A DNA stretch of 64,000 nt. Source: Syntrophales bacterium. GTDB taxonomy: Bacteria; Desulfobacterota; Syntrophia; Syntrophales; UBA2210. The stretch covers positions 96,001 to 160,000 of the forward strand of contig CAXXKT010000001.1 in assembly GCA_963662405.2 (NCBI GenBank). The letters run 5' to 3'. Below the pieces are notes generated by a model, which had not been told where the DNA came from, made no database searches, and saw only the letters and a program-made list of their open reading frames with translations. The position numbers and the translations under genes are program-made. Of this stretch, positions 32,564 to 59,508 are shown piece after piece. The first letter of the stretch is position 1; every line of letters starts with the position of its first letter.

Positions 32564-32737
32564 AAAAGTTATAAGGGGTTATAGCTGTCCTATAACCCCT
32601 TATAACAACCATCTTTCATTTTACCCCACACCCTACCCCACACGGGAAGATGAATTTGGTCCTTTTCAGGCAATATGGGCGAAATATTTGTTGGGGTGGA
32701 TGTTGATATATACTTGAAGGAATATCGTTGTTTCTTC

Positions 32738-34175
32738 CTCCTACCATGAATTTATATAGAGTGGTGTATAATCGATTAGTCGATGTTCATGGGAAGGCGG
32801 GAGGACTCAGTGCTTCCTGGGCGTTAGAGCCCTCATTTCAGTATGTCCCAAGCCTCTGTGAACCATAATAGGTTGGTTGGATCATTGAATCCTTGTCACG
32901 CTGGAGGATTGGTCTGGAGGCTATGGTTCCTGCTTTTCCTTTCATTCGTTAGGAGGTGAAGCGATGTCAGGATTAACGGACAGCTTTAATGATTTTGTTG
33001 GAATAGATGTTTCCAAAGATAAATTCGACGCCTGCGGAATCACAAGAGATGCAGCACAGCTCTTCCAGTTTTCCGCGAGCATGGATCGTAAGGGCTTCGA
33101 TAAGTTGAGGGAACATCTTGCTTCTGTTTCCATTTCGTCCGTTTTAATCGGGATGGAATCAACAGCATCTTATCATATCAATCTTTTCTCGTACTTGATT
33201 TCAGAGGGTTACCGAGTGATCATCATTAATCCTCTGCTGATTTCCAATTACGTGAAGATGCAGCTCCGGAAAACCAAGACAGATAAGAAGGATGCCGCTG
33301 TTATTGCCATGTTTCTTCTTGCACACAGAAATACCCTGAGCCAACGATCATATTCTCCTTTGATTTCCGAGCTTCGGGATCTTTCACGTCAGCGGGAGAA
33401 TCTGGTTGATGAGATGACCGCTCTGAAGATCAACATCAAACGGCTCCTGAATATCACTTTTCCGGAATTGGAGCATATGACGTTGGTCTTTACGAAGTCT
33501 ATGCTGAAGCTTCTCCAGCAATACCCATCTGCTGTTGCTCTGAGAAGTGCGGATCCTATTCAATTGTCCCAGACGCTCATTGCAGATTCCTATGGGCACA
33601 AAAGAGAAGCATTTACCGCGGAGTTAATGAAGGCAGCTAGAGCGTCGGTCGGTACCCACAGTGCTGCGAAGGAAGTCATTCTTAAACAACAGGTGACCTT
33701 GCTCCTTCACTTTGAAGAGGACCTGCAAGAGATAACCGGCATATTAATTGAGATGAGCCGAAATCTGATGGAAGAAGACATAAACATTCTGACTTCCATA
33801 AAGGGCATTGGTAACAAAACTGCTGTTAATTTTCTCATTGAGATGGGGGGCGACATCAATCAGTATGATGATTCCGGGAAGATCATTGCCATGGCGGGCT
33901 TAGATCCGGCTGTTTACCAGTCAGGCAAACATGAAGGTAAAGGCAAGATCACGAAACGAGGGAACCGCCATTTACGGAGAGTCATCTGGATGATGGCAAC
34001 CAGGGTGATCAACTATAGCGATGTTTTCAAGACTTACTACCTCAAACGTAGAAAGGAGGGATTGCCGTATAAGATGGCAGTATTGGCCACCGCTCACAAA
34101 TTGATCCGTGTCATCTATGCCATGCTGACGCAACGGACAACTTTCTGCCCACAGATAAATTCATGATAGTTGACT
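32738..34175 (+). mobile_element. IS110-family element (copy A)
   Basis: CT core at 32738-39 and 34174-75; sub-terminal IR CATGAATTTAT (32745) / ATAAATTCATG (34155); ~220-bp left non-coding end. Confidence 0.85.
32964..34166 (+). CDS. IS110-family DEDD recombinase/transposase
   Basis: 'VGIDVSK', 'MESTASY', 'KTDKKDA', 'SIKGIG', 'AGLDP..YQSG', 'KRGNRHLR'. Confidence 0.95.
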   Translation: MSGLTDSFNDFVGIDVSKDKFDACGITRDAAQLFQFSASMDRKGFDKLREHLASVSISSVLIGMESTASYHINLFSYLISEGYRVIIINPLLISNYVKMQLRKTKTDKKDAAVIAMFLLAHRNTLSQRSYSPLISELRDLSRQRENLVDEMTALKINIKRLLNITFPELEHMTLVFTKSMLKLLQQYPSAVALRSADPIQLSQTLIADSYGHKREAFTAELMKAARASVGTHSAAKEVILKQQVTLLLHFEEDLQEITGILIEMSRNLMEEDINILTSIKGIGNKTAVNFLIEMGGDINQYDDSGKIIAMAGLDPAVYQSGKHEGKGKITKRGNRHLRRVIWMMATRVINYSDVFKTYYLKRRKEGLPYKMAVLATAHKLIRVIYAMLTQRTTFCPQINS

Positions 34176-34227
34176 GAAAGAGATGGGATCAAGAGTGAAG
34201 AAAAAGTGGAGGATTTCTTTCCGTATT

Positions 34228-34283
34228 CATTAACACAGAGTTCACCGGGGCGCTTACGCATCCGGTGAAACAACTTGTTCAGC
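34228..34283 (-). other. attC site ending array-1 cassette
   Basis: Minus strand GCTGAAC...GTTTCACCGG-ATGCGTAAGCGC-CCCGGTGAAC...GTTAATG; R'' nearly complementary to GTTCGGC at cassette start (35245-35251). Confidence 0.75.
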
Positions 34284-34613
34284 ATTCGTGCTTTTAGACT
34301 CCGGGAGTGTGCCGGTTTTTAGTCGATACTCGTAGGTCTGTTCCTTTTTGCATCGGTTTACGATGGTTGTCTCATTAACGGGTGCTCCCATTGTCCAGTA
34401 GACTATTTCGTCTTCATCGAAATACGTAATACGTTTCTTGTAAAAGTGCCCCTCGTATCCGTATGATCTGATATGCCCGACAAGCTGAATAAATAATTCT
34501 TCGTCAAGGCGGTCACGTACAATATACTCGTGTGGCCAAGTAGGCGCATAGGTCTTGGCAAACGTCCACTTCTGCTCTGTGATAAAAGCTTTGAGGTTGG
34601 TGGGAAGCTTCAT
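34254..34613 (-). CDS. Hypothetical protein (cassette gene)
   Basis: 'WTFAKTYAPTWPHEYIVRD...YWTMG'; stop lies inside the attC. Confidence 0.7.
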   Translation of the reverse strand: MKLPTNLKAFITEQKWTFAKTYAPTWPHEYIVRDRLDEELFIQLVGHIRSYGYEGHFYKKRITYFDEDEIVYWTMGAPVNETTIVNRCKKEQTYEYRLKTGTLPESKSTNAEQVVSPDA

Positions 34614-34647
34614 CGTCTCATTCCTGTTCGGTGTCCCGGATGGCCTT

Positions 34648-35226
34648 TCAATATGGGATTCGTTCGTCCAGCCCGCGAATTGTCTCAGGTGCTGCAATAA
34701 CGAGTTGTCCGCGATTCTTCTCGCTCTTGGTTCCGATATGATTGTCAGCCGGATATAGCGCCGTGTCTACAGGATGGTTGTTCCTCAGATTCCAACCGAT
34801 GCACCCTTCAATGTGTTTTCGCAATTGAGGGTCAACCTCTACTGGGGCAAAGAAGATGTTTAGAACGGACACATATTTGATGACTGAACCATGGATGGTC
34901 TCGTATGCGTCAATCTGCTTATGCGGTCCATCTGGTGATTTGTCTCTCCACAGCCCCGGCCAAATGAGTTCGCAGATGCCTTGTTGCGCCTTGTCGGGAT
35001 CGAATATACCATAGTTGAGTCCGAGGATATGGATGAGGTGTTCCCGTTGTCGTTTTGCGAGAGACACCGTCTCTCCCACGTAGTGCACCATGTGTGTACG
35101 GTCAGCATGTTGCTGAATAGTCCATAGATATACTCCGGCAACACTGGCGCATGGTGCCGTGAAAACAGAATTATGACGATCCAGAAAGCTGAATGGCCCA
35201 GTAAAGTTTAGATTAAGCGTTTCCAT
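34648..35226 (-). CDS. GIY-YIG-like nuclease (cassette gene)
   Basis: 'GVYLWT...HYVGET...RQREH'. Confidence 0.6.
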   Translation of the reverse strand: METLNLNFTGPFSFLDRHNSVFTAPCASVAGVYLWTIQQHADRTHMVHYVGETVSLAKRQREHLIHILGLNYGIFDPDKAQQGICELIWPGLWRDKSPDGPHKQIDAYETIHGSVIKYVSVLNIFFAPVEVDPQLRKHIEGCIGWNLRNNHPVDTALYPADNHIGTKSEKNRGQLVIAAPETIRGLDERIPY

Positions 35227-35248
35227 GTGTTCCGTATCCTGGTTGCCG

Positions 35249-35281
35249 AACAATGTTTATATGGATCCTGATAAAAACCTA
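35249..35281 (-). other. attI-like site, copy 1
   Basis: Minus strand TAGGTTTTTATCAGGATCCATATAAACATTGTT directly abutting cassette start; 32/33 identical to 62267-62299. Confidence 0.65.
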
Positions 35282-35383
35282 TTTTCCTTCCTGCTATACG
35301 TACCAAAGTGGTGATTGCAACTGAGGTAATTTAGGTTCATCATCTGTCTGTATTTCTTATTGATTCAGGATAAGGAGGCAGAG

Positions 35384-36532
35384 ATGACCATGAAAGACGA
35401 TACTACACGGAAGGCAGCAATGTCTTCTGCAGTTACAGAACATCCCACCGCAACGACATCCTGGCATTACCAGACTCGTTTCCGTTTTTCATTACATCGT
35501 GATGGAAGTGTTGAGACACTCGCTACGATTTTGCAGCATCTTTCCCACATGGATCTTCCGGGCACGGATCATGTTGCGGCCTATCTGCGTTACCTGACCT
35601 ATCGTAACCGGCGCCCCCGGACGTTGACAAGTCGTTTTGGTTCCATAGTTTTGTTCCTCGCCATGGTGCGTGACAGCGGGAAGACACGTATTGAAGACGT
35701 TACCAGGAGAGATATTGAGTGCTTTATCGAGCACGAGCAGGACAGGGGCAATAAGATTACGACGATACGGACAAAGCTCGTCAATGTGCAAGCCTTTCTG
35801 CGCTATCTCGTGGAGGAGGAGATTGTTTCCCCGGATGTGTTTGGCAGGAGGATACGGTTGCAGCTGCCGGAGCGGCTGCCGAGGGCTATGGATCCTGACG
35901 ATCTACAGAAGCTGTTATCCGTGATTGACGATACCCGGGACCGAGCCATGATCATGGTACTGTTGAGGACGGGGATGCGCATCGGCGAGTTGCTCAATAC
36001 GAAGGTATCAGATGTCCACATCGGGGAACGGAGGATAGAGATTTACGAAGGCGAGAAGAACCGCCTGGGGCGCGTGGTGTATCTCAGTGACGATGCGATC
36101 CGTGCGCTCCGGAGGTGGTTGCAGGAGAGGAATCCCTGGGAGGCGTACCTTTTTTCCACTCATAGAAGCATATACCAGATGTCGTACAGCACCGCCCGTC
36201 TGATCTTCCATCGATATCTTGAGAAGGCGGGGTTACGTGACCGGGGCTATACGCTCCATACGCTTCGGCACACCTTTGCAACGGAGTTTCTCAACGCTGG
36301 CATGCGCCTGGAGTGTCTCCAGGTGCTGCTGGGTCACCGGAGTATCGAGGAGACCAGGCGCTATGCCAGGCTTACCGACAAGACCCGCGAGGAAGAGTAC
36401 TTTCGGGCCATGGCCCGGATAGAAGGGAGGGATAGTGATGGACATAACCAATGTCATCGTGAACTGGCGGCGGTTTCTGAAACGGAGAAACTGTTCGCCC
36501 AATACCGTGAAGAACTATCTGAATCTCATTAA
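35384..36532 (+). CDS. XerC/D-like tyrosine recombinase 1 (not IntI)
   Basis: SAM-like N domain; RTGMR, K, HTLRH, LGH, Y intact; no IntI-specific insertion. Confidence 0.92.
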   Translation: MTMKDDTTRKAAMSSAVTEHPTATTSWHYQTRFRFSLHRDGSVETLATILQHLSHMDLPGTDHVAAYLRYLTYRNRRPRTLTSRFGSIVLFLAMVRDSGKTRIEDVTRRDIECFIEHEQDRGNKITTIRTKLVNVQAFLRYLVEEEIVSPDVFGRRIRLQLPERLPRAMDPDDLQKLLSVIDDTRDRAMIMVLLRTGMRIGELLNTKVSDVHIGERRIEIYEGEKNRLGRVVYLSDDAIRALRRWLQERNPWEAYLFSTHRSIYQMSYSTARLIFHRYLEKAGLRDRGYTLHTLRHTFATEFLNAGMRLECLQVLLGHRSIEETRRYARLTDKTREEEYFRAMARIEGRDSDGHNQCHRELAAVSETEKLFAQYREELSESH

Positions 36533-37331
36533 ACACTTTGTTGTCTGGGCGGACGTGCCCGTTGAGGAGGTGACGCATGCAACGGTATCGCGCTACATAG
36601 AGTATCTGATGCAGAAGCGGCTATCGCCCAAGACCGTCAACTGTCATCTGAACGGTATTCGTCAGTTCTATCACTATCTGCGGGAAGAGGAAGGGATCGG
36701 TATTGTCAATCCCATCAGGAACAAACATACACAGAAGATGCCCCGACCCCTTCCCCGGCATTTACGAGACGAGCAGGTGGATCGTTTCTTTAACGTTGTG
36801 AATGGACACCGTGACCGTGCCATGTTCATGCTCATGCTCCGTTGCGGTCTCAGGGTGGAAGAGGTTGCCACCCTTGCCATCGGTGCCATAGACATCAAAC
36901 GCAGGGCTATCTTGATTGAGGACGGCAAGGGTGCAAAGGACCGGGTCGTGTATATGAGTAATGATGTGATTCAGTCACTGGCAGCCTATCTGAGAGTACG
37001 GCCGGCATCCCGGGCACGGAAGATCTTTCTGGCAGAGAAAGAGCCGTGCAGGGGCCAGCCCATCTCCATCCGCGGCATTCAACGGCGCATGGAACACTAT
37101 GCCCGCAAAGCGCGGATCAAAATGTCCTGTCATCATCTCCGGCATACGATGGCTACGCAGATGCTCAATGCCGATGCTGATCTGTGTACGATTCAGGATC
37201 TTCTCGGCCACAGCAATATAAAAACCACCCAGAGGTATTGCCGTGTATCGAACATGAAGGTTCAGAGAGATTACTTCAATGCCATGGAGGTCATTATGCA
37301 CCGAAGGGCCTGCAACCCACATAACACTTGA
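36435..37331 (+). CDS. XerC/D-like tyrosine recombinase 2 (not IntI)
   Basis: RCGLR, GKGAKDR, HHLRH, LGH, TTQRY; overlaps recombinase 1 by ~98 bp. Confidence 0.92.
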   Translation: MMDITNVIVNWRRFLKRRNCSPNTVKNYLNLIKHFVVWADVPVEEVTHATVSRYIEYLMQKRLSPKTVNCHLNGIRQFYHYLREEEGIGIVNPIRNKHTQKMPRPLPRHLRDEQVDRFFNVVNGHRDRAMFMLMLRCGLRVEEVATLAIGAIDIKRRAILIEDGKGAKDRVVYMSNDVIQSLAAYLRVRPASRARKIFLAEKEPCRGQPISIRGIQRRMEHYARKARIKMSCHHLRHTMATQMLNADADLCTIQDLLGHSNIKTTQRYCRVSNMKVQRDYFNAMEVIMHRRACNPHNT

Positions 37332-37509
37332 CGGAACAGAGAATATGTGAAATGGTAAACAACAACTAACCGCATAGAATCAATAGGTAAATCAGACTAT
37401 AGTACGTATAGCTTCCTGTAGTTGAGAAAAACAAGGGTGAAGAAGAAGTAGAATATTTCTTCCTGCAATCATTAGGAAAATAGTCGCTGTTGTCACTATT
37501 TTTCAAGAC

Positions 37510-40500
37510 TTATACGGCGTTATTTTTGGACTTCAAGATAATAGTGTCTGTATAAGCTTTTTGAAAAAGGTCGCTTTCTGCCGTACCGCTTGTCAATCCC
37601 GATGCAAGATGATTGAAAATTCTTTTTTTAGACTCAATCTCATATTCAGCGATCATTTCTGCTAATAACGATTTCGATCTGTTTTCTATATCTCTGTCCA
37701 TATCAATCCCATAGGCAAATTCCACGACGTCTTTATATATACTCCAAGCTTGTGCCCAGTATTTTATATCTTCGTGGTCACGTCTTATTCTCTTTAAAAG
37801 TTCAAGAGATATAGACAGAAATGATCTCGCTAAGAAGTTAAGCTTGTCCCTTTCTGCTTTTTGAACGAACTGTATTTTTTTGAACCAAACATACCAAATA
37901 GCTGTAATTATATTTTGTTCAACTAATATGCCATCCTCTTTACTGATCATGTATGATAAAAATTGTCCAATCTCGGTCAATGCGTTTTTGTAATCCCCTT
38001 TAAACCACCAAATAGCATTTATGAATGAATTGAAGGCTTGGTGATTATTTAATATCTCCAAATAATTCTCTATGCTTCCCCCCGCCTCTGAAAGATCATC
38101 TTCGAGAACAATCAATATATCCTTATAGTTTATCGGCATTCCAACCACATTAAATGCGCATAGCTGGGCGAATTTCTCTGCGGCTTCTTTTTGAGTTATT
38201 ACCTTCTTTTCTTTTAATATCGTTATTATATCGATTGTAGATATAGTATCTTCATAATGATTCTTACCACAAACATAGAGCCTTGATATTGCATCATCTG
38301 TATAAAATATGGGTTTTAATGAGTCATAAACAGACTTTATTTTATCTAATTCACTGAAAATATTATTTTCATCTATTATATCTTTACTTGAAGGTTGTTG
38401 AATCTGTTCAACATATCTTGATAATAATTCAACTATATCTTTAGCTTTGGTTGCATAGGGGATAAAAACAAATTGTTGAGCCAACATCTGTAAGTTAGCG
38501 ATTGAGTCTTTTGCGATTGCAATTTTAGGAAATATATCAAAAATGTATTCTAATAATGCTAAGTCGAATAAAATCAACAAAGCCACATCATCAATAAGAG
38601 GCATTCGCCCTCTAAGGTTCTCTATTCTTCTTGGCACATAGGGCCCGGGGCTAATAGTCAGCTGATATTGCAGATCATCCTTTCCGGTTATCTTGGACAA
38701 CTCCCACAGGTGAATAAAGTTCGAAACGTTCAATAAAAAATGATGCCTGATTAAATAAGGAACAGGAAGCGTGCCGCTGCTTAAAAGATTTTCATTCCGC
38801 TGGTACCATTCCCTTTTTTCTTTTGTGAATCCTGTTATAGTTTCTAGTTGAGATAATAGATCTTCGTGCGATTTTTCTTTTACATGGAATGATCTTAAAA
38901 CTTTTGACTCTGGAAATCTCTCTGTATATTTCTTAAGCCGTTTTTGAAACTCTTGAACGTTCTCATCTTGAACCGTTTTTTCAGGATCAAGTGTTGCCAC
39001 AAAGAAATTTAACAAATAAAGTCCTTCTTCAGCTTCATCATTTTGGTCACACAATTGGCCATATTTTAAACATATATCAATCAACCTCTCACTCTTTGGA
39101 TTGATATACATTTCAATGTTAAACAACATCCTCAAAAAATGTACCTTCTGCTTTTGATAAGTTGCTTTCTCAAGAAGTCGGGTGACCAAGGTTTTGGCTT
39201 TTTCGATCAGACCACATCTTGCTGATATATTTATATAGATTTCAAGTGCAAACGGGTCATGTTTTTCTCCTTGTGAGATTTCTTCTAAAAGTGTTAATGA
39301 TTTTCCTGTTTCTCCAATTCCATCTAGTGCTAAAGCCTCAAATGCTTTAAACTGAGAGTTGGTTGAAAATCTGATTTGTGCCTTGCGGGATGTTGCTAAA
39401 ACGCCATGCCAGTCTTGGACTGTTACTTTAGCCTGACAAAGAATAGTGTATTCGCTGTCTAGTAAATCCCTCTCCGAAATGATATCAATCGAAATTTCAA
39501 TAATTTTTTGTGCTGCGGCGTTTTCATATGGGTTAAGGTTATTAAAAAGTTGAGCTAATAATTGATTGTGTTTGTGACCTTCTTTGTAAACATCATATAG
39601 TTTTTCAATTGCCTCAGGCTTTTTTAACGCTTCCTGATTTGCGTGCAAAATAAAATCATATACTGCGATCAATGACCTTGAATTAGGGACCGTTTGTAGT
39701 GCCTCAAGAAACTTGTCTCTTTCAGTATACTTCATGAGATCATTAGCGCATTCAGCTGCAATTGCGATAACGGTGTCATAGTTAGCGGGTTTTTCTTTGA
39801 TTAGATCGTCAAGTATTTCAATAGCTAATTTGACCACTTCCGCTTTATCGTTTTTCCAATAAGTTAAAATGATTTTATTGGCTTTATTGTTTAGTGTATT
39901 TGGTAGCTTACATAATTGCCGCTCTGCAATGGTTCGATCACTTGTATGCATTGCAACTTGAAACAAACTTTCCTGTACAATTTGAATGGATGGTCTGATG
40001 TCTGCCAATTTAACGAGGTGTTTTTTAACGATTTCTGGCTCATTAAAATACATGCCTAAAATAGAGAATATATCGATCATCGATTGAACGTCAGGGGGGT
40101 ACCCTAATTTATCAGCTAAATTCATCGCAGATATTAACTCTATCCATGCGTTCTTTAATATTTCCGGATTCATGTCAGGAGTGCCTGCGAAAGATATCGC
40201 TTTGTCATCAGGAGTTTTTCTGAATCCAAGATTGAAGTATGATCTGGCTTTTAATGATCTTAAACTTAGTTCTTGTCTATCAGTTAAATCTTGTTCTGAG
40301 AATGCTTTGTTGACTTGGTTTATACAGTCATTGTATGAGCCTGAAAGCAAATGTATAAGCGCTTTAAGGACGAAAATGTCTTGTTCGTCCTGGTTTTCTA
40401 AAATTTTAAAGGCTTCTTCATATCTTTCGTTTAAAGCCAGCAATTTTGACTTCAGCCGAAGGTAATCAAGATCATTCTTTTTTTCTATCTCTGATAAAAT

Positions 40501-41478: not shown

Positions 41479-42018
41479 AGAAACACCAGTTTTTGTAATG
41501 CGGGGTTTGTGTATTATTGTAGGGTCATCTTTACCGCTTAATTAGAACCTCCTAAGCTATGATGATACATTAAGAAAGATATGATAGGGTTATCGGTGAA
41601 GTAACTCCATAGAGGATGTTTGTCAAGTATTATTAATAATATTGTATATTTCAATCTGTAATCTTTGAATTCCTAATGATAGGTTCTTGAGTATTTGTGA
41701 ATGCAATAACAAAAAACACTCATCTCCATATGAGCGTCACAAGCTATTCAAAGTCCATCCTCGGCGCTTTATATTGATTTGGTGACAGGTAATATGTTAT
41801 GTGCGGACGCGCCAATGGGGAAGTGTAAATCGGTCAGACTATCTTAACAAGCTGCGAGATAGTTTCTAACCTGTATCAACCAGCGACCCCAATATATTGT
41901 ACCCATGTTTGCAGCACCCGCAAAAATCCGATATCATCGATTCTCTTGTGTAAAACAGCTGCTTACCAAAAACATAATTAGGCAATAACGTGATAATAAG
42001 TCACAATTAAGAAAACGT

Positions 42019-43917: not shown

Positions 43918-44354
43918 AACGATCAACGGGGCAAATCAAATATTTCGAGACGAAATATCCAATAAATCAATCAAGCTTGTTTCCATCGAGTACAGAAAGG
44001 CACGCGCGTTTCCCTTAAGAGGAAAAAGACACGGTTCATTTCTGCACCTTTCATCCCGTATTCAATGAGTTGATGAGGAAATCCGACATGCACCTTTGCA
44101 GGTGGAATATGCAAAATTGGCCATTGGATAAGCAAAAACCCGTCGCGCCTTCTCTCATGGGATCCCATCATATATTGTTCTTTAACCTTAGATGGATGCG
44201 CGGCCAGTGTGAAGGGAACCGAGAAGATGTCTGGAGAATACCTCTCCGGGCTGAGGGAATGGACAGATTTTCAAGCGCAATACTGCAGTATCATTTCCAC
44301 CGAAATCGGTCCTGGACCGTAACGTAAGAACCGAAAGAGTGCCCTCTCATACCC

Positions 44355-48661: not shown

Positions 48662-48781
48662 CGGACTTCTTTCGGATTTTACCTGCACGCAAGAAACTGC
48701 AAATGGGGTATAAACCGATCTATCCCCGACATGCGAAGTTCTCGTTTCGAAGATGAAGGGGGGGGGGAGTAATCGAAGAGA

Positions 48782-49177
48782 CTATTTCTGCGATTTAGAT
48801 TCGGCAGGAGATTTCTTGACATCGCGAACGGCGGTTTTACCCATAAACGGCAAGAGGAGATTCTGGCTCGTTTCCTCCAGGAAGGCCTCCGTCTTCTGCT
48901 CCAGCAGGTCGAATTGTCTGAGGAGGGCGACTGCTTCAGCCGTCAGATACATGCCCTTTCCCTGGGTTCGTTCCACGAGTTTCGTCCCCATCCGTTCCTC
49001 AGAGGCCTTCACCCGCCCCCAGGCCGCTCGATAAGACATCTTCAATTTCTTTGCCGCCGCATTGAGGGAGTGTGATTCGTCTATCGCCTTGAACAGTTCG
49101 TACCGGCCCGATCCGAAAATCACCCTGCCACCCTTTTCAAACCAGATTTTATGTCTGATATCCATAGCATGCTCCAA
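48782..49177 (-). CDS. modE: ModE-type winged-helix regulator (HTH only, no TOBE domains)
   Basis: 'FGSGRYELFKAIDESHSLNAAAKKLKMSYRAAW'; next to modABC. Confidence 0.85.
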   Translation of the reverse strand: MEHAMDIRHKIWFEKGGRVIFGSGRYELFKAIDESHSLNAAAKKLKMSYRAAWGRVKASEERMGTKLVERTQGKGMYLTAEAVALLRQFDLLEQKTEAFLEETSQNLLLPFMGKTAVRDVKKSPAESKSQK

Positions 49178-49366
49178 ATCGTTCTCAAAGATATTTCATT
49201 GAGAACCAACCCTTTCAATACAAAGCAGTATAGGGAAAACCGCCACACGAGTCAATGGAATAATAACTTCATGCAATAATGGCATCAGAGTGATAGCTTA
49301 AGTGCATGGCATACCATCCTATCATGGATCGCCGCACTGCGGTGAAACCGTATCCGTGTGGTACCA

Positions 49367-51001: not shown

Positions 51002-51765
51002 TACTGTATCACCTTCAGCGAATCATATAAAATAGAAAGGTCTTCCCGGTCACGGGAATCACCACCATAACCATCCATATCTCCGGCGGCCCTCTGCTGC
51101 TCGGGAGGGCGTCCCTTCAGCATGAATTGAACCATCCATTTCCGCACGATCCTCCCCCCCACCAGGGGGAGGACATCATCCGCCAGATAGAGGGCCTCGG
51201 AGATATCGTGGGTGACATGGATGACGGGAATCGACAGGTCCCGTTTCAGCGTCCGCAGTTCCGCGCGGAGCCCCTGCCGGGTCACCGCGTCGAGTGCGGA
51301 AAAGGGTTCGTCCAGGAGGAGGAGACGGGGGTGCCGGGCCATGGCCTGACAGATGGCGCAGCGCTGACGCTCCCCCCCCGATATCTTGTCCGGCTTGCGA
51401 TCTTTCAGATGCCCGATATTGAAACGCCGGAGCAGGGAATCGATGTCACCCTTATCGGCGGCGGCGAAGGCCACATTCCCCGCAACCGTCAGATGGGGGA
51501 AAAGCGTATATTCCTGAAAGACATACCCCAGATGCCGCTCCTGCGGGGGGACATATATCTTTTTATCAGTATCTACCCAGACCTCATTATTGTAGGTGAT
51601 CCGTCCTTCGTCGGGCCGATCGAGCCCCGCCAGGATCCTGATGATGGTTGTCTTCCCCGCCCCTGACGGCCCGACCAGGGCAAGGAGGCGGCTTCTCCGG
51701 CAGGAAAAAGAGACATCGAGATCAAAATGGGGCAACTTCTTTTTTATCGAGACATTAAGCTCCAT
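51001..51765 (-). CDS. modC: Molybdate ABC transporter ATPase
   Basis: GPSGAGKT, ISGGE, LLLDEPFSALD. Confidence 0.9.
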   Translation of the reverse strand: MELNVSIKKKLPHFDLDVSFSCRRSRLLALVGPSGAGKTTIIRILAGLDRPDEGRITYNNEVWVDTDKKIYVPPQERHLGYVFQEYTLFPHLTVAGNVAFAAADKGDIDSLLRRFNIGHLKDRKPDKISGGERQRCAICQAMARHPRLLLLDEPFSALDAVTRQGLRAELRTLKRDLSIPVIHVTHDISEALYLADDVLPLVGGRIVRKWMVQFMLKGRPPEQQRAAGDMDGYGGDSRDREDLSILYDSLKVIQ

Positions 51766-52420
51766 AGATCTGCCTCCGGGTCAGGCGGTTGATGAGGAGG
51801 AGAAAGAGGTAACTGACCGGTACCAGTATGAGGCACATCATCCCGGCGTCCCGATAGCGGAGCGCCTCGACCGCCTCGTATATCGCGATGGACGCGACCT
51901 TGGTCTCGCCGGGGATACTTCCCCCGACCATGAGGATCACCCCAAACTCACCGAGGGTATGGATAAAGACGAGGATCGCCGATGCCGCAAGTCCGTTGAC
52001 GGCATTGGGGATAATCACCTTGAAAAAAGCGGTCAGGGGAGAGAGTCCCAGGACATAGGCGTTCTCCAGGAGGCGACGGTCGATCTTTTCAAAGGCCGCC
52101 TTCATGGGCTGGATAGCGAAGGGAAGACTGTAGACCAGCGATGCCACGACAATCCCGGCGAAGGTGAAGATCAGGGGTGAACCGGTGACGGCCTCCCAGA
52201 AGCGGCCGATATTCCCCTGAGGCGTCATGACCAGGAGGAGATAAAATCCGAGGACCGTCGGCGGCAGGACCATGGGGAGGGTGAGTAGCGCCTCAAAGAA
52301 CGACTTGCCGGCGAAGCGGACATAGACCAGGAGATAGGTCAGCGGCGCCGCCAGGATGACGAGCACCACGGTCGTTACCAACGCGAGTTTCAGTGAAAGC
52401 CAGAGCGGTATCAGGTCCAT
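51755..52420 (-). CDS. modB: Molybdate ABC transporter permease
   Basis: 'LPMVLPPTVLGFYLL', 'HTLGEFGV'. Confidence 0.93.
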   Translation of the reverse strand: MDLIPLWLSLKLALVTTVVLVILAAPLTYLLVYVRFAGKSFFEALLTLPMVLPPTVLGFYLLLVMTPQGNIGRFWEAVTGSPLIFTFAGIVVASLVYSLPFAIQPMKAAFEKIDRRLLENAYVLGLSPLTAFFKVIIPNAVNGLAASAILVFIHTLGEFGVILMVGGSIPGETKVASIAIYEAVEALRYRDAGMMCLILVPVSYLFLLLINRLTRRQIYGA

Positions 52421-53170
52421 CTAACGATATCCGTATTTTTCCTTGATCTTCCGGGCTTGGGGCGACTGTATGAATGTGACAAACCGTTCGGCAGCCGATC
52501 GGTTTTCCGTCCTCTTGAGGATACAGGCTGCCTGAACGATGGTCGGTGCCTCCGGGACCTCATAAAAACATCCCTTCTTCCCCTTTTCGGAGAGGGCCGA
52601 CGAATAGGCACAGAACCCTACGTCGGCGCTCTTCGTCTCGGCATATTGAAATGACTGTGCCACCGTCTGGGGAAAGACGTATTTACCTTTCAGCGTATCC
52701 CACAATCCAACCTTCTTGAGGGCAACCATCGCCGCGGTACCGTAAGGGGCGCTCTCGGTATTGGCGATGGCGATCTTCCGGACCTCCGGATCCTTCACCA
52801 CGGCCTGCCAGCCTGCCGCCCCGCACAGCGCCTGATGTGCCGTCCAGACCACCACCTGCCCCCGCGCGTAGACAAAGGGCGTATCGCACAGCCCCTTTTC
52901 ATCAAGGAGTTTCGGCCTCTTTTCATCGGCGGCGAAAAAGATATCGTACGGCGCCCCCTTGACAATCTGGCCGTATAATTTCCCCGTCGATGTATATGTC
53001 GCCTCGACAGGTATCCCCGTCTGTTCCTGGAACATCTGCGTCAGTTCTCCCGAGGGGAGAATAAAATTAGCGGCAACGGCAATCAACAGTTTTTCTCCGG
53101 CGAAAACCGGAGAAAAAGAGACAAGAACAAAGAATGCAATGGTGATAATGGTGGTGACAGAGCGGCGCAT
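52421..53170 (-). CDS. modA: Molybdate-binding periplasmic protein
   Basis: 'AVAANF', 'STGKLYGQI..GAPYDIFFAAD', 'APYG'. Confidence 0.93.
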   Translation of the reverse strand: MRRSVTTIITIAFFVLVSFSPVFAGEKLLIAVAANFILPSGELTQMFQEQTGIPVEATYTSTGKLYGQIVKGAPYDIFFAADEKRPKLLDEKGLCDTPFVYARGQVVVWTAHQALCGAAGWQAVVKDPEVRKIAIANTESAPYGTAAMVALKKVGLWDTLKGKYVFPQTVAQSFQYAETKSADVGFCAYSSALSEKGKKGCFYEVPEAPTIVQAACILKRTENRSAAERFVTFIQSPQARKIKEKYGYR

Positions 53171-53300
53171 GATGAGACTCCTTTTCTATAGCGTTTTTCC
53201 TCGAGCGATTGAAACGGTACACCCCTGATGAGTGAGCTGAAAGCATATGCCTTTTATGACACGTCTGGGCTTATAGGCAAAAGAAGTGAGGATGTCAAGG

Positions 53301-53326
53301 TTTATATGTTATTTCTAGCATATAAA
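53301..53326. promoter_or_regulatory. ModE-like palindrome upstream of modA
   Basis: TTTATATGTTA-tttc-TAGCATATAAA. Confidence 0.6.
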
Positions 53327-53569
53327 TACGAAAAAGGACACGCTAATTTTAACATATCCGGAACACCGTGCCAGATCCGATGCAACCATAAAAAGGCATA
53401 AAAGACTTGCACTCTTTCCCGACGGTTATAAACGATACCCCTGAAAAATACGCAGGCTCACGCGGGCGTACCCTGACACGCCGGAAAGCATGCTTCATTT
53501 TCTTCGCAGGACCGTGACGATTAAGGATTGACTTCTTGTTCGTATTCAGGGTATCAGGTCAAGCGGTTG

Positions 53570-53589
53570 TTATGCCAATATTGACATAG
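53570..53589. promoter_or_regulatory. ModE-like palindrome upstream of fdhE copy 2
   Basis: TTATGCCA-atat-TGACATAG. Confidence 0.5.
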
Positions 53590-53668
53590 AGGATCACTTT
53601 CATACAAACTCGCATTGGATAGAACGTATTTCACTCCAAAACGCCATGCGACATCAAGAGGTTATAAC

Positions 53669-54577
53669 ATGAGCAAAAGTGCCGAAGGGTTGTCAACGCT
53701 GGAGAAACAGATAGAGGAAATGAACGAGACAAATCCGCACAGCCGGAATATCCTCCTCGCCTTCAAGGCAATCTTGCTGGCAAGGAAACACCTCGTCGAG
53801 GACGGAGGCTGTATGAACGTGGACGTTTCACCCGTCGATACGGTTCGACTGCAGGGAGGAGTGCCTGTCTGCAGGCAGACACCGCTCCTTCACCCCGATG
53901 AACCGTGGAATGAAATCGCCTCGGCGGTGATTCCATCGATTGCGATCGGGTTCCCGGACCTTGCGGAGGAACTGCAGAAAATTGAAGCGGGTATCAAACG
54001 TGAACGTATAGAACTAACAGAATACTTTACTCCCTTTCCCGAACTCGACGAAAAACTTACCCGGAACTGGTCGGCAACCCTGGGCGTCAGACCGGAGGCC
54101 ATGCACCTGGTGCTGACGAGTATCCTTCGGCCCGTCCTGGAAATGAAGGCGAGAGCGGTCGCCGGAACGCTCGGAGATGTATCCTGGGACAAGGGATACT
54201 GCCCGATCTGCGGCGCCTTTCCCGATATCGCCGTGATCAAGGACAAAATTTCACAGCGGTGGCTCCACTGTTCCCAATGCCGTCATGAATGGCGCTTCAG
54301 TCGCGTCCTGTGTCCATACTGCGAGCATGAAGGGAAAGAAGAAGGAACACCCTATTTCTTTGTCGAAGGAAAAGAACAGGAGGCGGCATTCGCCTGCGAT
54401 CGGTGCAAGCGGTATGTGGTCACCCTGAACCGTATCAGTGATCTTGGCAGTCCTGATTTCGATGTTATATCCATGGGACTTACCCACCTCGATGTGATCA
54501 TGCAGGAAAAGGGGTATACCCCTGCAGCCTTCAATGAGTGGAACGATTTTGGGCCACCCGCCTCCCCTCTTTCATAA
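53669..54577 (+). CDS. fdhE: Formate dehydrogenase accessory protein FdhE (copy 2)
   Basis: 'GYCPICG', 'CSQCRHEW...R..CPYC', 'CDRCKRY'. Confidence 0.9.
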   Translation: MSKSAEGLSTLEKQIEEMNETNPHSRNILLAFKAILLARKHLVEDGGCMNVDVSPVDTVRLQGGVPVCRQTPLLHPDEPWNEIASAVIPSIAIGFPDLAEELQKIEAGIKRERIELTEYFTPFPELDEKLTRNWSATLGVRPEAMHLVLTSILRPVLEMKARAVAGTLGDVSWDKGYCPICGAFPDIAVIKDKISQRWLHCSQCRHEWRFSRVLCPYCEHEGKEEGTPYFFVEGKEQEAAFACDRCKRYVVTLNRISDLGSPDFDVISMGLTHLDVIMQEKGYTPAAFNEWNDFGPPASPLS

Positions 54578-54608
54578 AAAGAGCCAATCCAAATCCCTTC
54601 CAACACAT

Positions 54609-54700
54609 TTATGTTAATAGTAACATATTGACAAAACAGGGGAAAACTGCTTATGTCACCCATGACATATGGGAATAGTAATATGTTGCCGATGCCATAT
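54609..54700. promoter_or_regulatory. Three tandem ModE-like palindromes in fdh2 promoter
   Basis: TTATGTTA-N4-TAACATAT (54609), TTATGTCA-N4-TGACATAT (54651), ATATGTTG-N4-TGCCATAT (54681); TTGACA at 54628 between the first two. Confidence 0.6.
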
Positions 54701-54741
54701 AGTAATAATAGTAGTGACATAGAGTACTAAAGGAGGCTTTT

Positions 54742-57700
54742 ATGGATGTTACGAGAAGAGGTTTTCTAACTATTTCCGGCGCGGTCGGATCGGGCATCGC
54801 CTTGTCCTCTCTGGGCATCAATCTGAAACCAACGAAGGCGTATGCAAGCGAACTCAACAAGATGAACCGGCTCAGGGCAGCCAAGCAGGTCACGACGGTA
54901 TGCTGCTACTGCGCCGTGGGGTGCGGCCTCATCTGCAGTGTCGACAAGGTTACCGGCAAGATATTCAATATCGAGGGCGACGCCGATCATCCCATTAATG
55001 AAGGGTCACTGTGCGCGAAGGGGGCCGGATTCTTCGACCTGACGGAGGCCAACAAGTACCGTCTCCGGAAAGTTCTCTACCGTGCGCCGAAGAGCGACCG
55101 GTGGGAAGAAAAGGACTGGGACTGGGCCCTTGCCCGTATCGCCCGCCTGGTCAAAGACACCAGAGAAAAGGATTTCATCACCACCAACAGCAAAGGCCAG
55201 ATCGTCAACCGGACCGAATCGATCGGACATCTGGGAAGTTCCAACGTCGACAGCGAGGAGTGCTGGCTGATGAGCGTGATCTCACGCGCCATGGGGCTTG
55301 TCTATGTTGATCACCAGGCCCGGGTCTGACACAGCCCGACTGTAGCGGCTCTGGCAGAGTCGTTCGGACGCGGTTCCATGACAAACCACTGGATAGATCT
55401 CCAGCACAGCGATTGTATACTGATTATGGGCAGCAATGCGGCGGAACATCACCCCATTGCCTTCAAATGGATGCTCCGGGGAAAAGAAAAGAACGGAACG
55501 AGACTCATCCATGTCGATCCCCGCTTCACCAGGACATCGGCCCGTTGCGATTATCACGTTCCCCTGCGTTCCGGAACCGATATCGCCTTCCTGGGCGGGA
55601 TGATCAACTACATTCTCAACTCCGATAAATATTTCAAAGATTACGTCGTCAACTACACCAACGCCCCCTTTATCGTGGCGGAGGGTTTCGGCTTCAACGA
55701 CGGTCTCTTTACGGGGTACGACAAAGACAAGAAAAAATACAACAAGGAGACATGGGTGTTTGAAAAGGACTTTGCGGGAAATCCCAAGAAAGATCCTTCC
55801 CTCAATCATCCGCGCTGTGTCTTCCAGCTCCTGAAAAAACACTACACCCGCTACACCCTGGAGAAGGTCTCCAGCACCACCGGCGTTTCCAAGGAAGACC
55901 TGATGAAGGTCTACACGGACTACGGGAGCACCGGCGTGGGCACCCGCGCGGGGACGATCTGTTACGCCCTGGGCTGGACGCACCATTCGACGGGTACGCA
56001 GAATATCCGCACCATGGCCATGATTCAGCTCCTGCTCGGCAATATCGGGATCAACGGCGGCGGCGTCAACGCCCTTCGAGGCGAACCCAATGTCCAGGGA
56101 TCGACCGATCACTGTATCCTGTACGGCAATCTGCCGGGCTACCTGAAGATGCCCAAGGCGTCTCAAGACACGCTCGATAAATATCTCAAAAAGTACACCC
56201 CGGTGACAAACGATTCCCAGTCGCCGAACTACTACCGGAACTATCCGAAGTTCTACGTGAGTTTCCTCAAGTCGCTCTTCGACGACAAGGGGACACCGGA
56301 AAACGAATTCGGCTATTCCTGGATGCCCAAACTGGATGACGACGTACCGTACTCCCTCATGCACCTCTTCGACACGATGTACAAGGGCACGGTGAAGGGG
56401 CTGTTTTCCGTAGGTACCGATCCGGCCGTCAGCTCGCCCAACGCGAACAAGGTGAGAAAGGCGCTGAAAAAACTGGACTGGCTGGTAAGCGCCAACATCT
56501 TCGACAACGAGACCTGTTCCTTCTGGAAGGGCCCCGGTGTCGATCCATCGAAGATCAAAACGGAGTGTTTCCTCCTCCCCGCCTCGGCCTCCATGGAAAA
56601 GGAAGGCAGCCAGACCAACAGCGGCAGATGGGTGCAGTGGAAATACAAAGCGGCCGAAGCCCCCGGCGATGCGATTCCCGTGGGAGAAATATTCATAAAG
56701 ATCATGCAGTCCGTTCAATCTCTCTACGCCAAGGAAGGCGGCATCAATCCCGAACCGATCCTGAATTTCAAATGCGATTACCATGACCGGAGCGGCAACT
56801 TCGTTGCCCTGGGAGCGGCCAAGCAGATCAACGGTTACTTCCTTAAGGACACGGTCATCAAGGGCAAAACCTTCAAGAAGGGACAACTGGTTCCGACCTT
56901 CGGCATGCTCCAGGACGACGGTTCCACCTCCAGCGGCAACTGGCTCATGGCGGGAAGCTTCACCGCCGACGGCGAAAACAATATGACCAAACGCGGGAAG
57001 GACGATCCGACAGGTCTCGGCCTCTACCCCAACTGGACGTGGGCCTGGCCCGTCAACAGGCGCATCCTGTACAACCGCGCCTCCTGCGATATTAACGGAA
57101 AACCGTACAACCCGAAGAGAAAGCTCCTCGAGTGGACCGGTGAAAAATGGGTGGGCGACGTCCCCGACGGCGGCTGGGCGCCCATGGCCGATCGCGAGAA
57201 TGGGAAGTACCCCTTCATCATGAAACCCGACGGCGTGGGATCGCTCTTCGGTCCCGGTATGGCGGAAGGACCGTTCTCCGAGCATTACGAGCCCTATGAG
57301 ACGCCTCTGAAGAAAAATCCCCTTTCCAGCCAGTTGAACAATCCGGCGCTCCACGTGTTCACGACCGACATGGATCAGTTGGCCAACGGAGACGGGAAGT
57401 TCCCTTATGTCTGTACCACCTATTCCTGCACCGAGCACTGGTGTTCCGGTGCGCTGACGCGATGGCAGGCGTGGCTCCTGGAGATGCAGCCGGAGGCATA
57501 CGTCGAAATCGGCGAAAAGCTTGCGCAGGAAAAGGGCATCAAGAACGGCGAAAAAGTAAAGGTGTCCTCGGCCCGGGGATTTGTGAAATGCGTGGCCATG
57601 GTTACCAAGCGATTCCGCCCCTTCCTCGTTGAAGGCAAGACGGTGCATCAGGTCGGTCTGCCCTTCAATTATGGGTGGTTGTTCCCCGAAGATGGCGGGG

Positions 57701-57792
57701 ATAGCGCCAACATACTTACGCCCTCTGTCGGTGACGCGAATACCCACTGTCCCGAATACAAGGCGTTCATGGTTAACGTGACGAAGAGTTAG
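54742..57792 (+). CDS. fdnG: Formate dehydrogenase alpha subunit (Tat selenoprotein), copy 2; UGA at 55327-55329 read as Sec
   Basis: TRRGFL Tat, CCYCAVGCG; HQARV-U-HSPTVAALAESFGRGSMTNH joins 54742..55329 and 55378..57792 in frame. Confidence 0.95.
55345..55363 (+). other. Candidate SECIS hairpin, fdnG copy 2
   Basis: GCGGCUCU-GGC-AGAGUCGU, 15 nt after UGA. Confidence 0.75.
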
Positions 57793-57803
57793 GAGGGTGG
57801 ACA

Positions 57804-58607
57804 ATGAAAAAACATGAGATTGTACAACTGATCGATACGACAAAGTGTACTGCCTGCCGCGGCTGTCAGGTGGCATGCAAGCAGTGGAATGAAAACCCCG
57901 GCTTGAGGACCAAAAACTGGGGCAGTTATCAGAACCCGCCCGACCTGGAGTGGAACACCTGGACGCTGGTCCGTTTTCAGGAACATGTCGATTCAAAGGG
58001 GACACTGAAGTGGCTGTTCAGAAAGGATGGCTGCATGCACTGCACCGATGCGGCCTGCGTGAAGGTCTGCCCCAGCGGCGCCTTGTTCCATACCGAATTC
58101 GGTACAGTTGGCATGAACCCCTCATTATGCATCGGCTGCAAGGAATGCATCGCCGTCTGTCCCTTCGACGTTCCCCGGTATAATAAGGAAACGGACAAAG
58201 TGACGAAGTGTGACTTCTGTTATAACCGCCTGAAGGGGGACGAGCTTCCCGCCTGTGTCAAATCATGCCCCACCGGCGCCTTATCCGTCGGCAGGAAAGA
58301 GGATATGATTAAAAAGGCGTATCAGCGGGTCAAGGAACTCGGGGGCGATGCCAATGTCTACGGCGATAAATTCGTCGGTGGGACCCATCTCATCTACGTA
58401 CTGGGCGAAAAACCGGAGGTCTATGACAAGCTGCCGACCCGGCCCGCCGTTCCTCTTTCAGTTATTGCCTGGAAGGACTGGCTGAAGCCGCTGAGTCTGA
58501 TCGCCGGCGGCGGCGTAGTGGTGGGCGCGTTCCTCCACTATCTCATCCACGGACCCAAAGACACCGGCGGCGATAGTGATCAGGCCGGCCAGGGAGGAGG
58601 TGAATAA
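57804..58607 (+). CDS. fdnH: Formate dehydrogenase beta subunit, copy 2
   Basis: Four ferredoxin Cys motifs plus TM anchor. Confidence 0.93.
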   Translation: MKKHEIVQLIDTTKCTACRGCQVACKQWNENPGLRTKNWGSYQNPPDLEWNTWTLVRFQEHVDSKGTLKWLFRKDGCMHCTDAACVKVCPSGALFHTEFGTVGMNPSLCIGCKECIAVCPFDVPRYNKETDKVTKCDFCYNRLKGDELPACVKSCPTGALSVGRKEDMIKKAYQRVKELGGDANVYGDKFVGGTHLIYVLGEKPEVYDKLPTRPAVPLSVIAWKDWLKPLSLIAGGGVVVGAFLHYLIHGPKDTGGDSDQAGQGGGE

Positions 58608-58608
58608 G

Positions 58609-59280
58609 ATGATACCACAGAAGGGAATGATTAAAGTATCGGACGCGTTTGAGAGAATCGTTCATTGGTGCCTGGCCATCTCCTGCCTTATCCTGATGAT
58701 CTCGGGACTGGGGATGATGTTTCATGCCTTCAACTTCCTGGCGATTCCGGTGGGCGGGCTCAAGAGCCTGAAACTTATCCACAACTTTACCGGGTTGATA
58801 TTTGTACCGTCGCTCTTCTTCGCTATCCTGATCTGGTGGAAGGAAGCGGGCGTATTCGACTTTCCCGACGATCTGGAATGGATCAAATGCGCGGGCGGGT
58901 ACCTCTGGCACGTGGACAATCCACCGGAGACGGGGAAATACAACCCCGGCCAGAAGGCCTTCTTCCTTGCCGTGGCTATCTTCGGCATCATTATGATCAT
59001 CAGCGGGCTCATCATGTGGTTCTCCCTGAGTTTCCCCGCCGGGACGGTACAGATAGCGTATTTGCTCCACGCGCTGGGGTTCCTGGTGATCTTCCCCTTC
59101 TTCTTTATCCACCTCTACCTGGGAACCATCGGTGTCCCCGGTTCGTTCCCCGCCGTGGCGACCGGTTACGTGACCCGGTCCTGGTGTGAGAAACAATGCC
59201 CCAAGTGGCTCAGAGAAAAGGAAGAAGAAGGAACACTTGAGATCTACGGTGAAGAAAAGGCGGCGGCTGAACATCACTAA
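58609..59280 (+). CDS. fdnI: Formate dehydrogenase gamma (cytochrome b) subunit, copy 2
   Basis: 'ERIVHW', 'GKYNPGQK'; very similar to copy 1. Confidence 0.92.
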   Translation: MIPQKGMIKVSDAFERIVHWCLAISCLILMISGLGMMFHAFNFLAIPVGGLKSLKLIHNFTGLIFVPSLFFAILIWWKEAGVFDFPDDLEWIKCAGGYLWHVDNPPETGKYNPGQKAFFLAVAIFGIIMIISGLIMWFSLSFPAGTVQIAYLLHALGFLVIFPFFFIHLYLGTIGVPGSFPAVATGYVTRSWCEKQCPKWLREKEEEGTLEIYGEEKAAAEHH

Positions 59281-59304
59281 GCGCCCTCTTTCCATTTGAA
59301 AAGG

Positions 59305-59337
59305 AAAGGACCCGTACTTTGTACGGGTCCTTTTTTA
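59305..59337 (+). terminator. Rho-independent terminator of fdh2 operon
   Basis: AAAGGACCCGTAC-ttt-GTACGGGTCCTTTTTT. Confidence 0.88.
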
Positions 59338-59350
59338 TTGTTCATCCGGC

Positions 59351-59444
59351 TAATGAGTACGAATGAAGGCTGTCTTTGTTTGCTTCCTGTAGTCGATAAA
59401 AACCAGAGTGAAGAAATAGTAGTGGTTTCTTTCAGTACTCATTA
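59351..59444. repeat. Uninterrupted copy of the ~95-bp repeat unit (10-bp terminal IR TAATGAGTAC/GTACTCATTA)
   Basis: Homologous to reconstructed units 32698-32739+34176-34232 and 35251-35292+37418-37474. Confidence 0.75.
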
Positions 59445-59501: not shown

Positions 59502-59508
59502 TAGCTTT

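Follow-up and report, generated by a model that had tools for sequence, protein, structure and literature searches.

Cassette arrays between a putative attI-type sequence and a conserved extragenic element, itself a target of other insertions, in a Syntrophales genome

What lies at the two ends of a short cassette array that has no integrase gene beside it? The question is raised by a stretch of 64,000 nucleotides from a Syntrophales bacterium (assembly GCA_963662405.2, contig CAXXKT010000001.1, positions 96,001 to 160,000 of the forward strand), which we call the window; it corresponds to C1:96001-160000 of genome G000, whose three contigs include those labelled C1 and C2. An initial annotation had noticed that a unit of 95 to 99 bp with YAATG...CATTA ends brackets the arrays found here, and had read it either as a single element resembling a miniature inverted-repeat transposable element (MITE), perhaps mobile together with the cassettes, or as one side of a unit-unit junction that is the real integration site. 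The three full units and a half-unit do lie where that annotation had placed them. Unit A consists of 32698-32739 plus 34176-34232 once 32740-34175 (IS110-A, an insertion sequence, IS) is removed, and unit B of 35251-35292 plus 37418-37474 once 35293-37417 is removed, both removals restoring 99 nt; unit C (59351-59444, 94 nt) is uninterrupted, and half-unit D (62269-62299) is 31 nt long. As a whole, these observations are probably best explained by integron cassette arrays that the integron integrase (IntI) made between two separate sequences, here called L and R, together with independent insertions of other elements at a CTTCCTG motif.

The first evidence comes from pairwise alignments of the half-units, each scored against 2000 shuffles. 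The right halves of A, B and C aligned with scores of 23, 26 and 27 against a shuffled mean of 3.9 to 4.7, and 0 of 2000 shuffles scored as high. The left halves of the same units proved unrelated, with 208/2000 shuffles scoring as high for A and B, 203/2000 for A and C and 1102/2000 for B and C. Regarding half-unit D, its comparison with A gave 66/2000, and that with B gave 0/2000, the sole significant left-half pair. The copies can therefore be aligned as the annotation expected in their right halves, but not in the left halves of A, B and C. The symmetry of the ends also stood in part: a true 10-bp perfect terminal inverted repeat (TAATGAGTAC and GTACTCATTA) is present in unit C only, while the window sequence shows no terminal inverted repeat in A or B and no target duplication flanking the units. 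Because only the right halves of A, B and C, and only the left halves of B and D, align above the shuffles, we treated the unit as two elements; it is probably a composite in which two independent conserved sequences, L and R, meet at the 7-bp CTTCCTG. The features involved are as follows (ORF, open reading frame; HMM, hidden Markov model; CM, covariance model).

32698..32739, plus strand: left flank of unit A, ending in CTTCCT; not homologous to L (shuffle test; no match to the L HMM).
32740..34175, plus strand: IS110-A, with its transposase at 32964-34166 (Pfam and NCBIfam), inside the CTTCCT/CTGAAAG start of R_A; boundaries to about 2 nt.
34176..34232, plus strand: R_A, with its CTTCCT start at 32734-32739; nhmmer E=2e-12, CM R1 61.5 bits.
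34233..35250, minus strand: array 1, a single cassette whose two ORFs (34254-34697, 34648-35253) overlap; attC at about 34233-34290.
35245..35290, plus strand: L_B, putative attI-type element, left half of unit B; L HMM E=1.3e-09, CAATG cassette junction at left.
35294..37411, plus strand: YR2-1, 2118 bp, two recombinase genes (35360-36532, 36435-37331), flanked by CTTCCTG at 35287-35293 and 37412-37418.
37412..37474, plus strand: R_B, CM 70.5 bits, followed by a hairpin at 37476-37504 with loop CGCTGTTGT.
59351..59382, plus strand: left flank of unit C, directly after the terminator of a formate dehydrogenase (fdh) operon; not L; carries TAATGAGTAC, the inverted repeat of the R_C end.
59383..59444, plus strand: R_C, uninterrupted, starting with CTTCCTG; nhmmer E=1.2e-15, CM 71.1 bits.
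59445..62268, minus strand: array 3, three cassettes with ORFs 59509-60243, 60334-61035 and 61028-62248; attC at about 59445-59506, 60250-60312 and 60958-61030.
62263..62306, plus strand: L_D, putative attI-type element (half-unit D); L HMM E=8.8e-10; a short spacer comes next (62307-62323).

L, the left half of B and D, is about 32 nt long (CAATGTTTATATGGATCCTGATAAAAACC). Read in the cassette direction it ends in ATATAAACA(T/C)(T/C)G|TT, also read as ATATAAACATTG|TT, and this is the start point of every array. The genome has two intI genes, both outside the window. The intact one (C1:2211990-2212934) scored 471.4 bits with TIGR02249, whose cut-off is 265; the second (C1:30608-31553) is broken by an in-frame TAA and still has an attI-like site and a cassette array beside it. 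The arrays at both genes have sites of the attC type, one of which, 101 nt long, is repeated four times. The L sequence is found next to the first cassette in both places, at C1:30426-30472, just downstream of the broken gene, and at C1:2214353-2214396, downstream of the intact gene with an IS3 between, some 140-200 nt from the end of intI in each case if the inserted IS3 is ignored. Because the same sequence sits downstream of each intI and before the first cassette, L occupies the attI position. An HMM built from five copies gave 12 genome matches at E<1e-3, dispersed over the three contigs, and L with a spacer as at L_D was found in 15 of the 60 other genomes (G-numbers) that served as the panel of relatives for profile searches. 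We read L as the attI-type site of this genome's integron, present in at least 12 copies and predicted to bind IntI.

R has the form CTTCCTG...ATTTCTTTC.GTAATCATTA and is about 65-74 nt long. The HMM built from the three units, which the annotation had proposed to scan over the genome, did reveal extra right-half copies (e.g. C2:286930 at E=2e-09), and an nhmmer search with the right half alone gave 18 genome matches at E<1e-5, on all three contigs. Seventeen copies were aligned over 74 columns, with a mean column identity of 70%, and the CM built from this alignment found 17 copies in the source genome and matches at E<=0.001 in 25 of the 60 relatives. These comprise 23 of the 36 genomes of the same family and one genome in each of two other families, with up to 10 copies per genome. 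The most conserved blocks are CTTCCTG, which is nearly invariant, ATTTCTTT and GTAAT.

The arrays lie exactly between these two sequences. Array 3, on the minus strand, starts at L_D (CATTG|TTGGTA), runs through three cassettes and ends at G|TAATGAGTAC, where R_C starts. The R'' box of each attC is complementary to the start of its own cassette, TGCTAAC to TTAGCA and CTATAAC to TTATAG at 6/6 positions and TGCCAAC to TTGGTA at 5/6. Array 1 is a single two-ORF cassette that extends from L_B (CATTG|TTCGGC) to G|TTAATGAATAC of R_A; the R'' of its attC (GCTGAAC) matches the cassette start TTCGGC at 5/6 positions, and its ORFs gave no Pfam or NCBIfam matches. The annotated junctions were thus correct in both arrays (34233-35250 and 59445-62268), the last attC ending exactly at CATTA and the first cassette starting at the next CAATG. 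Bracketing by units holds for these two arrays but not for the stretch from B to C, which contains no cassette array: R_B is followed by the small hairpin and by no attC. With an IntI above its cut-off, attC sites whose R'' is complementary to the cassette starts and a predicted attI-position site beside intI, the genome presents these three of the features by which integrons are recognised.

The 3' junctions of all 17 R copies were then compared by an anchored attC-complementarity test with 400 random controls, whose 5th percentile was -12.8 kcal. Five of the 17 junctions fell below this value, where 0.85 were expected. Among the copies in the window, the R_A junction (G|TTAATGA) has an attC-type inverted repeat of -14.0 kcal and the R_C junction one of -21.7 kcal; the R_B junction, at -7.7 kcal, is inside the control range and has no attC. 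A sixth R copy of the attC type, at C1:2679992, shows the canonical boxes GCCTAAC...GTTACTG, with one further copy, 94% identical, in the same genome; another genome holds a homologue. Downstream of each of the six attC-abutting copies, at 953-6418 nt and on the same strand, lies an L; for the other 11, no L lies within 15 kb. The claimed link of further copies to attC is therefore real for 6 of the 17, which also pair with L, and absent in 11; most L copies, for their part, have no R. The proposal that the CATTA/CAATG junction is the integration site was borne out by this pairing and by the homology of its CAATG side, L, to the site beside both intI genes. R-array-L pairings in which cassettes would have been inserted between L and R occur at least six times in the source genome. 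The order R, about 0.5 kb with one reverse ORF, and L was also seen on two contigs of another species (G005), and a contiguous L-spacer-CTTCCTG-R unit is present in another genus.

Three other ways of looking for attC sites were less useful. In a whole-fold hairpin test of the right flanks of R, random controls folded equally well and the method was dropped. A genome-wide scan for AAC/GTT duplexes with ends forced to pair flagged one of the 17 R junctions against a background of about 3200 sites, its end rule being too strict, and the canonical pattern RYYYAAC...GTTRRRY matched none of the array sites.

We consider it most likely that the IntI encoded at C1:2211990-2212934 would act in trans on a site formed by the end of L and the start of R (...CATTG|TTAATGA...). 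IntI would then have made the junctions described above by inserting attC-bearing cassettes at L|R, so that L heads and R closes each array, and R and L would once have been adjacent. Their first joining could have come about through tandem platforms, through a circular L-R mini-cassette inserted at an attC, or through a circle bounded by CTTCCTG. CTTCCTG, at the other end of R, would be a separate specific target of the two-recombinase element and of IS110-A.

Several results weigh against this explanation. At its threshold, the CM found no R in the array beside the intact intI, and R therefore cannot be regarded as a terminator of arrays in general. The attC of C1:2679992, at -10.8 kcal, is not significant on energy alone; one of the six L partners (C1:1947650) is weak, with E=0.47; and the junction in unit C reads G|TAATGA, without the second T of the canonical G|TT. 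An uninterrupted R|L junction was not found: a 22-nt pattern gave four three-mismatch matches in 61 genomes, none with an intact L part (the reversed control gave two), and among the metagenome matches listed for a 17-nt junction pattern, 0 of 80 fetched loci had an R or L HMM match. RNAalifold predicted no consensus structure for R. Finally, R is present in G042, a genome with no IntI found at E<=1e-30, and lies far from all three intI genes in G003. These last two genomes rule out R as an ancestral attI flank in every integron, and because of them we take the function of R itself to be independent of integrons.

Comparisons with related sequences gave little information about an empty site. 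At the fdh locus, compared over 1.5-kb flanks, the relatives share 74-84% amino-acid identity and are too distant for it; no strain of >95% identity is among the 60. Contigs of four public runs, examined over 32000-38500 and leaving parts of it uncovered, showed no joints or circular form, and contigs cannot show rare circles or excisions.

Regarding the other end of R, the annotation was right to treat the recombinase block and IS110-A as clean insertions that interrupt the unit. YR2-1 has inverted ends CTATACGTAC and GTACGTATAG with CTTCCTG on both sides. Only two ORFs fit in its 2118 bp, and both have Phage_integrase and SAM-like domains (Pfam); the best NCBIfam models were XerA/XerC (166-205 bits, below their cut-offs), and the IntI model gave only 73 and 120 bits. 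The predicted proteins are a Xer-like recombinase pair and not the integrase of the arrays. We compared the window copy with 77 related loci from other genomes (L063-L139; fetched loci carry L-numbers). In 53 of these 78 loci we found an element of 2.07-2.41 kb with near-perfect terminal inverted repeats of 10-17 bp and a 7-bp direct repeat matching at 6 or more of 7 positions, the 25 misses including loci cut by contig ends. The 7-bp repeat was CTTCCTG in 14 cases, CTTGCCA in 10, GCTGTCA in 6, CACCTAC/GTAGGTG in 5, CAAATAC in 4 and another sequence in the remainder. Such a duplicated 7-bp sequence is the expected signature of integration by crossover within a 7-bp spacer: a circular element carrying GTACGTATAG-CTTCCTG-CTATACGTAC would integrate in this way. 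The element is nonetheless independent of R, since it was found at E<=1e-60 in 7 of the 60 relatives versus 25 for R, and only 2 of its 13 other CTTCCTG insertions are in a recognisable R. It is also widespread among genomes from metagenomes that carry the labels Syntrophaceae, Desulfobacterales, Nitrospira and others, and we found no description of it in the literature searched.

IS110-A has a second copy at C1:879589-881038, and the CTTCCT^..CTGAAAG context was seen in both of the two copies. It belongs to the IS110 family, as does IS110-B, which lies further to the right: both proteins have the DEDD_Tnp_IS110 (PF01548) and Transposase_20 (PF02371) domains and score above the cut-off of NF033542, with 249 and 242 bits. 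The five copies of IS110-B (window 62554-63785, C1:1415565-1417019, C1:305115-306561, C1:164030-165271 and C2:343179-344515) all lie at GTAGTAG^GT, the end of a 230-nt repeat described below. This shared position suggests that the target of IS110-B is sequence-specific and different from that of IS110-A, presumably under the guidance of a bridge RNA.

If other elements use R as a target, one could ask what R is for. It may be a functional chromosomal element, namely an RNA in a 3' untranslated region or near a terminator, or else a small RNA whose anti-Shine-Dalgarno seed is CUUCCU, that mobile elements exploit as a safe harbour. This possibility, which we hold only tentatively, is compatible with arrays made between L and R, as it concerns the role of R. 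R normally lies between a core gene and convergent accessory genes: of 12 loci from other genomes, 10 have a convergent ORF as the nearest one to its right, and the genes to its left are diverse core genes, such as those for MFS, RdgC, SPOR-domain and formiminotransferase (FTCD) proteins. The hairpin after R_B (37476-37504) has a counterpart in L044 and L047 and is broken in L049; it is found in several genera, with a T-run in several of them. Within R itself a predicted internal hairpin has moderate support, with 81.6% of cells paired against 72.6% in shuffled alignments, three of eight pairs changed on both sides and a covariation score that 0 of 500 shuffles reached, and the near-invariance of CTTCCTG points the same way. 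Against a functional RNA, no promoter was identified and the lack of an RNAalifold consensus counts here too, as do the Rfam results: a search of the window with Rfam 15 gave tRNA and int-alpA only, with no family match for R, L or the 230-nt repeat at gathering score, and a search over a region with R and the 230-nt repeat gave a best E of 0.75, far short of the gathering scores.

A protein-coding R was also considered. Many copies contain the frame LPEVDKI..FF*, as would the 3' end of a protein gene. The column entropies by codon position are 0.85, 0.90 and 0.82 bits. Thirty-seven copies were examined, and in none of them does a long ORF run into R. Because its variation has no three-base periodicity and no copy is joined to a long ORF, we regard R as non-coding.

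Some further observations concern the surroundings of R. In the hairpin that follows it (37476-37504 in the window; L044, L047 and L042), the loop CGCTGT(TGT) is kept and the stem varies by genus (ATAGT/ACTAT versus GGG/CCC), and such a kept loop with a changing stem suggests a recognised structure. R_B and a diverged R copy in inverted orientation (43931..44004, minus strand, CM 55 bits) bracket an accessory segment of 6.5 kb, in which a DUF4365 protein of 1322 aa, an ORF of 311 aa and an IPTL-CTERM protein are encoded. One more inverted pair was seen, at C1:293296 and C1:304993. Since these are the only two inverted pairs among the 17 copies, we rejected the idea that R forms the terminal inverted repeats of a transposon. 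Finally, ORFs for IS200-like Y1 transposases adjoin two weak or truncated copies of R (L024, 3834-4100; L026, 4628-5068), and one of them interrupts R.

L and R are also parts of a larger arrangement, three further features of which lie at the right end of the window.

62324..62553, plus strand: 230-nt dispersed repeat; 73 genome matches at E<1e-3; minus-strand terminator pointing toward L_D and array 3.
62554..63785, minus strand: IS110-B, transposase 62562-63530, at the GTAGTAG^GT end of the 230-nt repeat; boundaries approximate.
63788..64000, plus strand: left end of YR2-2, which runs to about C1:161946 beyond the window; inverted repeats CTATACGTAAC and GTTACGTATAG, core GTAGGTG.

The 230-nt repeat is found near L, 18-161 nt away, in 9 of 18 L matches. 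The order of the larger module is L, the 230-nt repeat, a hairpin-bearing stretch that starts with GTAGGTG, CTTCCTG and R, and the units of the window look like short forms of it. YR2-2 uses GTAGGTG and so sits at the other conserved junction of this module. Read on the cassette strand, the 230-nt repeat combines a TTGACA hexamer and about 110 nt of sequence, both conserved, with a strong intrinsic terminator; scans of it found two terminators against 0.1 expected and 0 sigma-70 promoter-like sites. Besides, it precedes many genes, ordinary ones among them, for example five times at C1:433-442 kb (C1:433076-442032). It could be a multicopy leader or small-RNA family. That it is part of IS110-B was rejected, given that the copies beside the IS diverge as much as solo copies.

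Such a module invites a bolder proposal, for which our confidence is low: the L...R platform, made of an attI arm, an optional promoter or leader repeat and R, might be a mobile, integrase-less seed of new arrays across the chromosome and across genera, with R as a dual pad that offers TTAATGA to IntI and CTTCCTG to a two-recombinase family whose spacer sets the target. If this were true, platform and dual pad would form a second mobility layer above the level of cassettes.

In a related explanation that we judge unlikely, the stretch from L to R, either in the short form of unit B or in a longer one that includes the 230-nt repeat, would be a mobile cassette without an ORF that carries an attI-like site. 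Its circle would have the joint ...CATTG|TTAATGA..., and IntI, through the favoured attI x attC reaction, would place it in attC sites, seeding new attI heads, and perhaps promoters, inside or beside arrays. Its ends do look like cassette boundaries, as in the cassette direction it would start with TTAATGA after the G of an attC and end with CATTG before the TT of a cassette. L and R are contiguous in unit B and in the other genus mentioned, the 230-nt repeat follows L in half of the L matches, and chains of the L...R-array-L...R type are found at C1:1944-1956 kb. However, none of the three units in the window is a complete L-R with cassettes on both sides, since R_B abuts a hairpin that is not an attC, and A and C have something other than L as their left flanks. 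The public contigs examined showed no circular joint, and the pattern searches no closed junction.

The composite movement suggested by the annotation could also take another form, in which segments of the type R-cassettes-L, with or without the 230-nt repeat, are bounded by CTTCCTG and were integrated as circles into a resident R, the two-recombinase element acting in trans. Both segments in the window are indeed flanked by CTTCCTG (32734-39 with 35287-93, and 59383-89 with C1:162001), which is exactly the 7-bp crossover that this element uses, and R_B keeps the hairpin seen after R in other genera, as expected of a resident target. We nevertheless find this very unlikely: the presumed binding arms of the recombinases, CTATACGTAC, are missing from the segments, the element was found in only 7 of the 60 relatives against 25 with R and 15 with L, G005 gave no recombinase match at E<=1e-60 in spite of its two R-cassette-L loci, and the array at C2:286926-287996 has no CTTCCTG in the roughly 1 kb inspected after its 230-nt repeat. 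As for a non-autonomous, MITE-like transposable element of 95-99 bp with YAATG...CATTA ends, the multicopy nature of R and the perfect 10-bp repeat of unit C speak for it, but it fails because the left halves of A, B and C proved unrelated and because A and B lack terminal inverted repeats, and with no target duplication, R and L occurring separately and R copies averaging about 70% column identity rather than being near-identical, we give it almost no credence.

The explanation that we prefer, arrays made by IntI between L and R, can be set against known systems. The usual description of an integron has a single integrase, a single attI and a single array; arrays with no integrase close by are known among chromosomal integrons. 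The genome studied here resembles those with chromosomal integrons in its genuine IntI, its attC-type imperfect inverted repeats, its unannotated cassette ORFs and the presence of L in the attI position; it differs from them in having at least 12 dispersed attI-like copies with only one intact intI, and at least six arrays closed by the same R. An inverted-integrase group of integrons exists; here, intI and the cassettes have the same direction. In pdif/Xer modules and REP/BIME repeats, too, short and conserved extragenic repeats flank accessory modules and are targeted by site-specific elements; unlike the former, R has no dif-like 11-6-11 site, when compared with that site as it is generally known. 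Elements of the IS1111-attC group insert at attC. The targets seen here are different, namely CTTCCT/CTGAAAG, where R starts, and GTAGTAG/GT, where the 230-nt repeat ends. Like other members of the IS110 family, for which a bridge-RNA-guided recombination mechanism is described in PMC11208160 and PMC11208158, IS110-A and IS110-B each occupy one fixed sequence in all copies examined. Insertion of cassettes off attI, at genomic sites, is among the subjects of bioRxiv 10.1101/2022.09.11.507474.

The two-recombinase element can be compared with elements of the Tn554, RIT and SE types. The strand-biased circularizing integrative elements (SE) have, as PMC10782965 describes them among other features, imperfect terminal inverted repeats of about 19 bp, a 6-bp joint and the gene set intA-tfp-intB-srap, and PMC8138268 includes the RIT and Tn554-type recombinases in a list of element-borne simple recombinases. 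All of these share with our element several tyrosine-recombinase genes, site-specific insertion and a short spacer at the joint. In contrast to them, it has two Xer-like genes only, with no third or fourth core gene, and so lacks the gene sets that define them (TnpA, TnpB and TnpC; three recombinases; intA-tfp-intB-srap).

The arrangement of attI-like heads and short R-closed arrays recurs in a second species, and suggests a possible route for the multiplication and dispersal of arrays with no integrase nearby. R is a conserved extragenic element of 65-74 nt that three different recombination systems would use as a landing pad, a role for which we found no description in the literature searched. 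The two-recombinase element is compact and widespread in Desulfobacterota- and Nitrospirota-type metagenome genomes, and a 7-bp spacer seems to set its target.

Some minor observations concern the rest of the window. Just left of unit A lies the apparent 3' end of a tRNA gene (32518-32564), and an int-alpA RNA match of 38.2 bits lies at 32311-32377 on the minus strand. At 32518 and at 32555-32564, contigs of three public runs part from the window sequence, as they would at the edge of an island. In the stretch 37475-59350, between units B and C, Pfam identified BipA, the fdh operon and a molybdate-type ABC transporter. The catalytic subunit of the formate dehydrogenase appears as two plus-strand ORFs, 54742-55329 with the Fe4S4 domain and 55378-57792 with the molybdopterin domains, and a selenocysteine TGA read as a stop may account for the split.

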